Positions 13,266-14,465 of a stretch of 64,000 nucleotides of DNA are shown here, in pieces (the first letter of the stretch is position 1; every line of letters starts with the position of its first letter). Location: the NCBI RefSeq assembly GCF_024700885.2, contig NZ_CP117016.1; one strand, given 5' to 3'. The stretch comes from Escherichia coli. Its GTDB lineage: Bacteria; Pseudomonadota; Gammaproteobacteria; Enterobacterales; Enterobacteriaceae. Below the pieces are notes generated by a model. That model saw nothing but the letters and a program-made list of their open reading frames with translations, was not told the DNA's origin and searched no databases. A program made the position numbers and the translations under genes.

Positions 13266-13380
13266 GTAATTAATTCCGGGCTAATTATCTGATGCGCAGA
13301 CTATAGCGCAGGAATAACATTAGGGATAATTGATAAAATTAATATAGTATAAGTTGAATTAATAAACTGAAGGAACAGAT

Positions 13381-14424
13381 ATGCACTACCGACAATTACT
13401 CCCCTTTCTTTTATCAGGATTTCTTCTGTTATCTCCCTCGATTTTTGCTGCTGAAAAAATTCTTCGTTATACAGACCATGAACCCTACGGGGGAATGCGT
13501 ACACAAATAATTAAAGAGATATTTTTTGCAGAAATTGAAAAAGAGTCGCAGGGGCGTTTGAAAATCGAACCACACTGGAACGGTGAAACCGCCATCAGCT
13601 ATGACGCTCTGACGACAATAAGCGATGGCAGCAAAGCTGATATGGGTATAGTGGTGCCGGAATACACCGCGAAACAATTGCCGCTTCATCAAATCTTCAA
13701 GAGCTTTGCTATTGGCCCGGATCATGGAGCCAGTCAGGTAGAATTCTTTCGTCGCGTATATGCGGAAATTCCCGAATTTAACGCTGAACTTGAGCGTAAC
13801 AATATCGTGAATTTACAGTTTTTCCTTGGCTACCCGGTAGGCTTTTTCTCTACCAGGCCCATTGATAAATTGACTGCGCTTCAGGGAACCACCTGGCGAA
13901 CAGCCAGTTTCTGGCATCGGGCTTATTTAACTCATACGGGGGCAAAAACCGTAACTTTACCGTGGAATGATCAAATAACTAAAGCACTCATGGATGGAAA
14001 ACTGGATGGTTTAATGGTCAATCTCGATAGCGGATATGACATCCATGCTGAACGTGCTGCGCCGAATGTGTTGCTCTCACCTTCTCTCTGGCTTGGTCAT
14101 GTTTATCTGTTGGTAATGAATAAACAATCGTGGGAAAACCTTGATAACAGAGATCGTGAGGCTATTCAACGAGCTGCCATTACAACCGAGAAAGCACTGG
14201 GCAAGGCATTAGATAACAACCTGATCAGCATGGTAAAAACGCTTGAGCAGGAAGGTGCACAGGTTCGCTATCTGAAAAAATCAGGGCTGGACGCCTGGCA
14301 GAAAGCGATCGGTTATCAGCAAGAACAAGCACAGTGGGTAGAAAAGCAAAATAAGGAAGGCGTGGAGAAAGCCGGGGAAGTCATGCAAAAAGTTGCCAAT
14401 ATACTCGATGAAACAATGCGTTAA
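13381..14424 (+). CDS. TRAP-type (DctP-like) periplasmic solute-binding protein, orphan
   Basis: 347 aa, signal peptide, DctP-like pattern; AT-rich; no adjacent permease; absent from K-12 argO-mscS interval as I recall it. Confidence 0.7.
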   Translation: MHYRQLLPFLLSGFLLLSPSIFAAEKILRYTDHEPYGGMRTQIIKEIFFAEIEKESQGRLKIEPHWNGETAISYDALTTISDGSKADMGIVVPEYTAKQLPLHQIFKSFAIGPDHGASQVEFFRRVYAEIPEFNAELERNNIVNLQFFLGYPVGFFSTRPIDKLTALQGTTWRTASFWHRAYLTHTGAKTVTLPWNDQITKALMDGKLDGLMVNLDSGYDIHAERAAPNVLLSPSLWLGHVYLLVMNKQSWENLDNRDREAIQRAAITTEKALGKALDNNLISMVKTLEQEGAQVRYLKKSGLDAWQKAIGYQQEQAQWVEKQNKEGVEKAGEVMQKVANILDETMR

Positions 14425-14433
14425 ATTGGTAGT

Positions 14434-14460
14434 GCGCCCATGAACTTCATGGGCGCTTTA
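14434..14460 (+). terminator. terminator after orphan SBP gene, 9 nt from mscS stop
   Basis: GCGCCCATG-AACTT-CATGGGCGC 9-bp stem followed by TTTA. Confidence 0.55.
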
Positions 14461-14465
14461 CATGA

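Follow-up and report, generated by a model that had tools for sequence, protein, structure and literature searches.

Escherichia coli K-12 and about 96% of E. coli genomes represent the deleted state of a locus that has held a gene for a solitary DctP-type solute-binding protein (SBP) between argO and mscS since early in the history of the Enterobacteriaceae. We have analysed this locus in a 64,000-nt stretch of E. coli DNA (RefSeq assembly GCF_024700885.2, contig NZ_CP117016.1), referred to below as the window. Its argO–mscS spacer (13266–14465, 1.2 kb) has a single long open reading frame (ORF), at 13381–14424 on the plus strand (stop included), which encodes the SBP of 347 aa. In our assessment this ORF probably encodes an intact, selectively maintained and anciently resident periplasmic protein of the DctP fold, belonging to a clade of solitary proteins, and K-12 has lost the gene.

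The comparison with K-12 defines the difference between the two allelic states. In a K-12 derivative argO and mscS are adjacent, as the initial annotation of this DNA (made by a model from the letters and their ORFs) had stated, with 138 bp between them, and the SBP gene is absent. Alignment by blastn with the K-12 locus (L002) delimits a segment of 1145 bp without a K-12 counterpart (13344–14488); homology to K-12 stops at 13343 and restarts at 14489, and in place of the 1145 bp K-12 has 68 unrelated bp. The left boundary is fuzzy, since identity to K-12 is 96–100% across the flanks, 84% over 13200–13343 and nil beyond. The 84% stretch, the last 140 nt before homology ends, consists of the 5′ end of argO (12630–13265, minus strand) and its upstream region, and because identity is this low over the argO start and the upstream control region, regulation of argO may differ between SBP-positive and SBP-negative strains. 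As a separate observation, the ArgO protein allele differs as well (WP_000626874.1 vs WP_000493352.1).

The right boundary lies inside mscS (14466–15341, minus strand). The final seven codons and the stop (14466–14488) fall in the variable segment, as seen from the ORF list, the RefSeq annotation and a comparison of C-termini; MscS has 291 aa in the window vs 286 aa in K-12, where it ends in ..FKRVKEDKAA, and the C-terminal ends differ. The earlier suggestion that the junction is located within the last codons of mscS was therefore correct, with the boundary at 14488/14489, seven codons inside the 3′ end; the K-12 alignment showed an mscS 3′ end that is not identical and no SBP gene. The K-12-type deletion also replaced the last codons of mscS. 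A blastn-short search with the 68-bp replacement of K-12 against all loci found no remnant of the SBP segment beyond the argO-promoter side.

Of 5426 complete E. coli genomes, 216 (∼4%) have the segment by megablast, with coverage of at least 80% in every one of them; SBP-positive E. coli include sequence type ST69, PCN033, NCTC86 and O145:H28. The SBP-negative genomes listed have one common span of 1724 bp, thus suggesting a single deletion allele.

A gene missing from ∼96% of E. coli genomes could, however, be a recent arrival. The initial annotation had called it inserted, and such a horizontal insertion, a mini-island set between the core genes argO and mscS, would be in line with the GC content of the gene below that of its flanks, with the variability of the site (an integrase/helicase island in O145:H28 and a 309-aa gene standing on either side of the SBP gene depending on lineage) and with an SBP identity in Superficieibacter that is incongruent with that of the flanking genes. 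What speaks against it is the distribution of the gene outside E. coli. We found argO–SBP–mscS synteny at 24 loci, and the genera of Enterobacteriaceae that they represent number 12 or more: in Escherichia (E. marmotae, E. whittamii and one further species besides E. coli) and in Superficieibacter, Citrobacter braakii, C. amalonaticus, Klebsiella spallanzanii, Enterobacter, Huaxiibacter, Lelliottia, Silvania, Kluyvera and Yokenella. In a neighbour-joining tree the syntenic copies form one clade, apart from copies that lack the synteny, such as those of Hafnia, Rahnella and Buttiauxella. Across genera, the G+C content at third codon positions (GC3) of the SBP gene tracks that of the flanking genes (r 0.88); the gene is thus ameliorated to each host. 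Synonymous divergence (dS) of the SBP gene is 0.33 to E. whittamii and 0.37–0.45 to E. marmotae, with ratios of non-synonymous to synonymous divergence (dN/dS) of 0.1–0.25. Divergence within Escherichia is therefore at species level and under purifying selection, which fits vertical descent. Between the two E. coli haplotypes of the gene dS is 0.13–0.16, a value that we judge to be deep for E. coli.

The five states in which the locus occurs in Escherichia point in the same direction, to a long-resident gene whose decay has taken different courses. E. marmotae has an intact gene for a 309-aa protein together with the SBP gene; in E. coli SCU-316 and O145:H28 the 309-aa gene is frameshifted and the SBP gene is present; the window and E. 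whittamii have the SBP gene alone, with a common N-terminus MHYRQ..; E. albertii retains a frameshifted 309-aa gene alone, the SBP gene being deleted and MscS ending in ..VKEQ; and K-12 has neither gene. There are no direct repeats flanking 13344/14488, no tRNA and no integrase within the window. Synteny, the single clade, the tracking of GC3, the dS values and the E. albertii remnant are the reasons for which we read the difference as a deletion in K-12 rather than an insertion here; with the same slot occupied in so many genera and no sign of a mobile element, the claim of insertion does not stand. Recent horizontal insertion is largely refuted, and we regard it as very improbable.

Some further observations concern the spacer and the 309-aa gene. 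Copies of the latter were located at L004 5017–5946, L003 2370–3300, L088 3277–3981, L089 4989–5926 and L091 1507–2439 (L numbers designate the loci compared). The 309-aa protein is cytoplasmic and is matched by no model of Pfam or NCBIfam; DUF1963 is the name given to one UniRef homologue, and in some relatives the N-terminus is extended by PF23917. In another lineage the gene is downstream, not upstream, of the SBP gene. It ends in a similar hairpin (GAAGGCTTATCG..CGATAAGCCTTC) across different hosts, which suggests that gene and hairpin make up a small mobile cassette. In O145:H28 strain RM13514 the edge of a larger island, with genes for a tyrosine integrase and a DEAD/DEAH helicase, separates argO from the 309-aa pseudogene and the SBP gene (L088 71–3115). 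With this island inserted there, the argO–mscS spacer is a hotspot of integration and turnover.

The identity of the protein is supported by profile and structure searches. The initial annotation had it as a secreted DctP-like protein of 347 aa, and a Pfam search indeed matched DctP (PF03480) over residues 48–310 with an E-value of 3.1e-17 (63 bits). The match to the NCBIfam model TRAP_S1 (NF037995; TRAP, tripartite ATP-independent periplasmic) is a narrow pass, 54.9 bits vs a cutoff of 50, and the dctP subfamily model TIGR00787 fails, with 16.7 bits vs a cutoff of 175. A PDB search with a profile of 18 family members returned DctP-type TRAP SBPs only, the best being 4NAP/4PGN (E-value 3e-20). 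The AlphaFold2 model made from 47 sequences (predicted local distance difference test, pLDDT, 92; predicted template-modelling score, pTM, 0.87) has a two-lobed α/β fold with a long hinge-spanning helix at residues 256–290. The best 50 PDB matches of this model in Foldseek are all TRAP SBPs, with template-modelling (TM) scores of 0.67–0.78 and 15–21% identity to any solved structure. The TarP binders of coumarate/cinnamate (hydroxycinnamates), 7NRA/7NR2, are ranked first (E-value 2e-20, TM 0.73–0.77), followed by Dde_0634, pyroglutamate binders, aromatic-acid binders and SiaP.

Among the 47 sequences, which come from several phyla, 38 columns are invariant, and the E. coli SBP is full length and has all of them. 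R173 and N214 are invariant; D32 and H179 are also among the 38 columns, and H33 and H240 are conserved in at least 90% of the sequences. The motifs YTDHEP, WR[TS]ASFWH, VNxDSG and LWLGH are characteristic of the clade. In alignments R173 coincides with an Arg both of 4NAP and of a second, canonical DctP encoded in the window (motif GLKIRV), and N214 with the Asn of DGAENN in the latter protein. We take R173/N214 to correspond to the carboxylate clamp R147/N187 of SiaP. Given the conservation of this clamp, the ligand is most likely an organic acid.

RefSeq already annotates the gene, and orphan SBPs are a known kind of protein: the SBP is identical to WP_000559340.1 of strain 118UI (the window and 118UI have 3 differences over 8.8 kb), whose product name is ‘C4-dicarboxylate TRAP transporter substrate-binding protein’. 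The ‘C4-dicarboxylate’ part of this name finds no support, considering the score of TIGR00787 and the nearest structures, which bind aromatic acids or pyroglutamate at ∼18% identity.

A ribosome-binding site, AAGGAA, is located 8 nt 5′ of the ATG of the SBP gene. Residues 1–23 (13381–13449, plus strand) make a predicted Sec signal peptide: the N-terminus MHYRQLLPFLLSGFLLLSPSIFA, which is followed by AEK, starts with a basic residue and a hydrophobic core, and the predicted cut falls between I-F-A and A. The Sec type was assigned by eye, and the structure model has pLDDT <60 at residues 1–20, the signal-peptide region. The gene shares with the divergent argO (minus strand) a control region of 115 bp (13266–13380) that is AT-rich (30% GC). 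The whole segment, which the initial annotation had described as AT-rich, is moderately so, with 43.6% GC vs 50.8% for the window; GC3 is 0.43 for the SBP gene vs 0.54–0.58 for the flanking genes. Between the convergent SBP and mscS genes an inverted repeat forms a G+C-rich hairpin of 10 bp (14434–14456), for which RNA folding gives −22.5 kcal/mol and a z score of −6.5; this is probably a terminator shared by the two genes, which the terminator scan missed because the T-run is short. An Rfam scan of 12500–15500 gave a chance sub-threshold match only.

One could suppose that the gene no longer has a function and is in the process of being lost. Its former neighbour, the 309-aa gene, has been frameshifted or deleted in E. 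coli, the SBP gene of L009, which represents one Escherichia species, is interrupted by a stop, and most E. coli do without the gene. However, the ORF of 347 codons is intact in the annotated genomes inspected, the coverage of the segment nowhere falls below the 80% given above, dN/dS is that of a gene under selection and all of the family-invariant residues are kept, so that decay of the gene appears scarcely credible.

The solitary state of the gene is the rule for its whole clade. In a clade scan with one genome per species, 80 loci were returned, and all ORFs within 10 kb were searched with the DctQ and DctM of the window (phmmer --max, E ≤10). No DctQ or DctM was detected in 77 of the 80 species loci, nor beside the SBP gene of the window; in the three exceptional loci the membrane subunits adjoin a canonical DctP of their own. 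The observation in the initial annotation of an orphan with no DctQ/DctM permease nearby is thus true for the window and extends to the clade. Members of the clade are found in Enterobacterales, Rhizobiales, Rhodobacterales, Synergistaceae, Bacteroidales and Fibrobacter, and are 43–50% identical to the E. coli SBP across phyla. Clustering of the neighbours across the 80 loci revealed no universal partner and no consistently adjacent transporter. Local associations do exist. In eight species of Rahnella (L037–L049, e.g. L044 7361–9781) a TonB-dependent receptor is encoded directly upstream on the same strand; it scores 312 bits against the hemoglobin/transferrin/lactoferrin family model, just under the cutoff. 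In five alphaproteobacterial loci an EnvZ-like kinase and a response regulator are encoded divergently upstream, and in Hafnia the neighbours are an AraC regulator, an oxidoreductase and an SBF-like carrier. Orphan TRAP SBPs have been described as exceptions, the vast majority being encoded in operons with their membrane partners (PMC12344293). Our full-text searches of the literature gave general remarks on orphan TRAP SBPs and nothing on this clade or on the esterase fusions described below.

The window also carries a complete canonical TRAP operon, between hemW and yggM at 49409–52244, with dctP (328 aa, 49409–50395), dctQ (170 aa) and dctM (433 aa), the latter two at 50431–52244, ∼36 kb from the orphan. 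Each of the three genes either exceeds a family cutoff by far or is matched by YiaM/YiaN-like models, the resemblance of the membrane subunits to YiaM/YiaN being distant, and the canonical DctP reaches 286 bits with TIGR00787, vs the cutoff of 175. The orphan might therefore be a second binding protein for this permease, or for YiaMN, a TRAP permease known in K-12, and widen its range of substrates. Several SBPs serving one permease are known for ATP-binding cassette (ABC) systems, and the conserved carboxylate clamp is typical of SBPs engaged in transport. Yet a canonical DctP, with only 20% identity to the orphan, is already part of the operon, and the two loci differ in distribution: of 5426 complete E. 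coli genomes, 1492 (27%) have the dctPQM island vs 216 for the orphan, and the island is absent from K-12-like strains and from O145:H28 RM13514. The latter strain has an intact orphan, with hemW followed directly by yggM and no TRAP island there. A clade that is solitary in 77 of 80 species does not suit this explanation either, nor does the rarity of orphans among TRAP SBPs, most of which are operonic (PMC12344293). We consider a second-SBP role distinctly unlikely. Obligate dependence of the orphan on the dctQM genes is likewise unlikely (the initial annotation had suggested a test for dependence), in view of the DctP of the operon and of the RM13514 genome.

The only clue to function comes from rumen Synergistaceae, in which the SBP domain is the C-terminus of secreted multidomain proteins. 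Their N-terminal part consists of a repeat domain or of an enzyme, either a type-B carboxylesterase or an α/β-hydrolase. A protein of 1002 aa (L072 7928–10933) has a type-B carboxylesterase (PF00135, E-value 4e-120) followed by DctP, and one of 551 aa (L074 9284–10936) has Abhydrolase_1 followed by DctP; further Synergistaceae fusion loci are L085 (7727–10951), L055, L077 and L086. More architectures that combine an α/β-hydrolase or FMN_bind with DctP exist in close relatives, and some of the Synergistaceae fusion loci have tandem paralogues. CocE/NonD and S9 hydrolases, an aldo/keto reductase and a MarR regulator are encoded at these loci as well. We had guessed from an SGAT motif that the N-terminal repeats were FMN_bind, an identity that Pfam did not confirm on L072; one relative, P0150, carries PF04205. 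The fusions couple the SBP domain to extracytoplasmic ester hydrolysis, which fits capture of the released acid, and we think that the Synergistaceae domain probably does capture the acid set free by the hydrolase. By analogy, the SBP of E. coli could have an acid-capture role as well.

These fusions raise the question of whether the clade has left transport altogether, its members having become periplasmic co-sensors for a kinase or other signalling protein, or accessory or catalytic modules working with extracytoplasmic hydrolases. The kinase and response regulator genes of the five alphaproteobacterial loci and the carboxylesterase or α/β-hydrolase fusions would then find an explanation, as would the conservation across phyla, which is unusually high (43–50% identity with 38 invariant columns), and the missing transporter neighbour. 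Against this, the enterobacterial locus has neither a kinase nor a hydrolase, the kinase link is limited to five of the 80 loci, and the protein has the Arg/Asn clamp and the overall fold of SBPs in transport. Departure from transport is possible, in our opinion, and less probable than the reading with which we began.

In the reading that we prefer, that of an ancient, maintained and solitary periplasmic protein, the mature SBP would bind a small organic acid through the Arg173/Asn214 carboxylate clamp and would act without a dedicated permease, handing its ligand to a membrane partner encoded elsewhere. Alternatively to this last step, it may be a free binding or capture module, which would suit the carboxylesterase fusions of Synergistaceae. 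We put forward a broader scheme as speculation: the motif-defined clade might be a class of the DctP fold freed from TRAP subunits, serving as an extracytoplasmic acid-capture or recognition module with a single ligand from E. coli to Bacteroidales. Its partners might, again speculatively, be secreted esterases, non-TRAP transporters or sensor kinases.

Several observations weigh against the preferred reading. The SBP is 58% identical to that of Citrobacter vs ∼90% for the flanks, and evolves several-fold faster than these; in Superficieibacter the SBP is 76% identical, closer than the flanks predict. Across genera the identity of the SBP does not scale significantly with that of the flanks (Spearman 0.2–0.37), because the Superficieibacter and UBA5654 copies are closer than expected. 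As divergence of the SBP and its closeness in Superficieibacter do not follow the flanks, some homologous replacement of the gene between genera is likely and descent was not purely vertical. Strict vertical descent is for the same lack of scaling a claim that we do not make. Within Escherichia, GC3 of the SBP gene is 0.12 below that of the flanks. A scan of 13150–14600 for consensus sigma-70 promoters and terminators found no intergenic sigma-70 site and no terminator. The gene contexts in other taxa are heterogeneous and indicate no single partner. Finally, all E. coli probably carry other TRAP permeases, so use of a permease in trans may be envisaged.

Outside the locus, srsR (ygfI, a regulator of the LysR family; 10734–11629, minus strand) is broken in the window into two ORFs (206 aa and 112 aa). 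Relative to 118UI and K-12 there is one G fewer near 11098 and an A/G change at 11072; the split reflects a frameshifted pseudogene or else an error of sequencing. Two database records seem to be mislabelled: a 1433-bp contig (L008) of a ‘Collinsella sp.’ metagenome-assembled genome that is 100% identical to the E. coli SBP gene, and the assembly ‘Chryseobacterium sp. 18061’ (L020), with an enterobacterial yggE–argO–SBP–mscS–fbaA block.

What is new here is the direction of the event, its consequence for the MscS tail, a clade that is solitary as a rule and the esterase fusions. The usual reading of a gene missing from K-12 is reversed, as it is the K-12 reference whose allele is derived, by deletion, and the ancestral state survives in ∼4% of strains (among them ST69, PCN033, NCTC86 and O145:H28). 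MscS is a heavily studied channel, and the deletion has rewritten its C-terminal tail. The analysis delimits a well-conserved, cross-phylum clade of DctP-like proteins, and the esterase fusions provide a concrete handle on the ligand. Should its members function without DctQM, the clade would be a DctP-type example, beside TAXI–GltS, of TRAP-family SBPs recruited by other partners.

Three known systems are useful for comparison. The DctP-type TRAP SBPs TarP (7NR2/7NRA), Dde_0634 (4NAP) and SiaP have, like the orphan, two α/β lobes with a long spanning helix, a signal peptide (a predicted one in the orphan) and the ligand Arg and Asn; the orphan differs from them in its low identity (15–21%), in its failure with TIGR00787 (16.7 vs 175 bits), in not being encoded with DctQ/DctM and in its own set of invariant motifs. 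The canonical dctPQM system at 49409–52244 likewise has a PF03480 periplasmic protein with the Arg/Asn clamp; it comprises all parts of a tripartite transporter, and its family scores exceed the cutoff by a wide margin, whereas the orphan is solitary. Orphan SBPs of secondary transporters have been described, among them the ‘Bug’ proteins of the tripartite tricarboxylate transporters (TTT) and AdpC (PMC5812351), and a TAXI SBP pairs with GltS (PMC12344293). Like the E. coli orphan, these proteins are encoded without membrane subunits of their own family, and similar partners come into question, either a permease acting in trans or a transporter from a different family. They belong, however, to the TctC or TAXI families, while the E. 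coli orphan is of the DctP type; and the orphan state here is conserved across a cross-phylum clade instead of accompanying a lineage-specific expansion, with no alternative transporter consistently adjacent.

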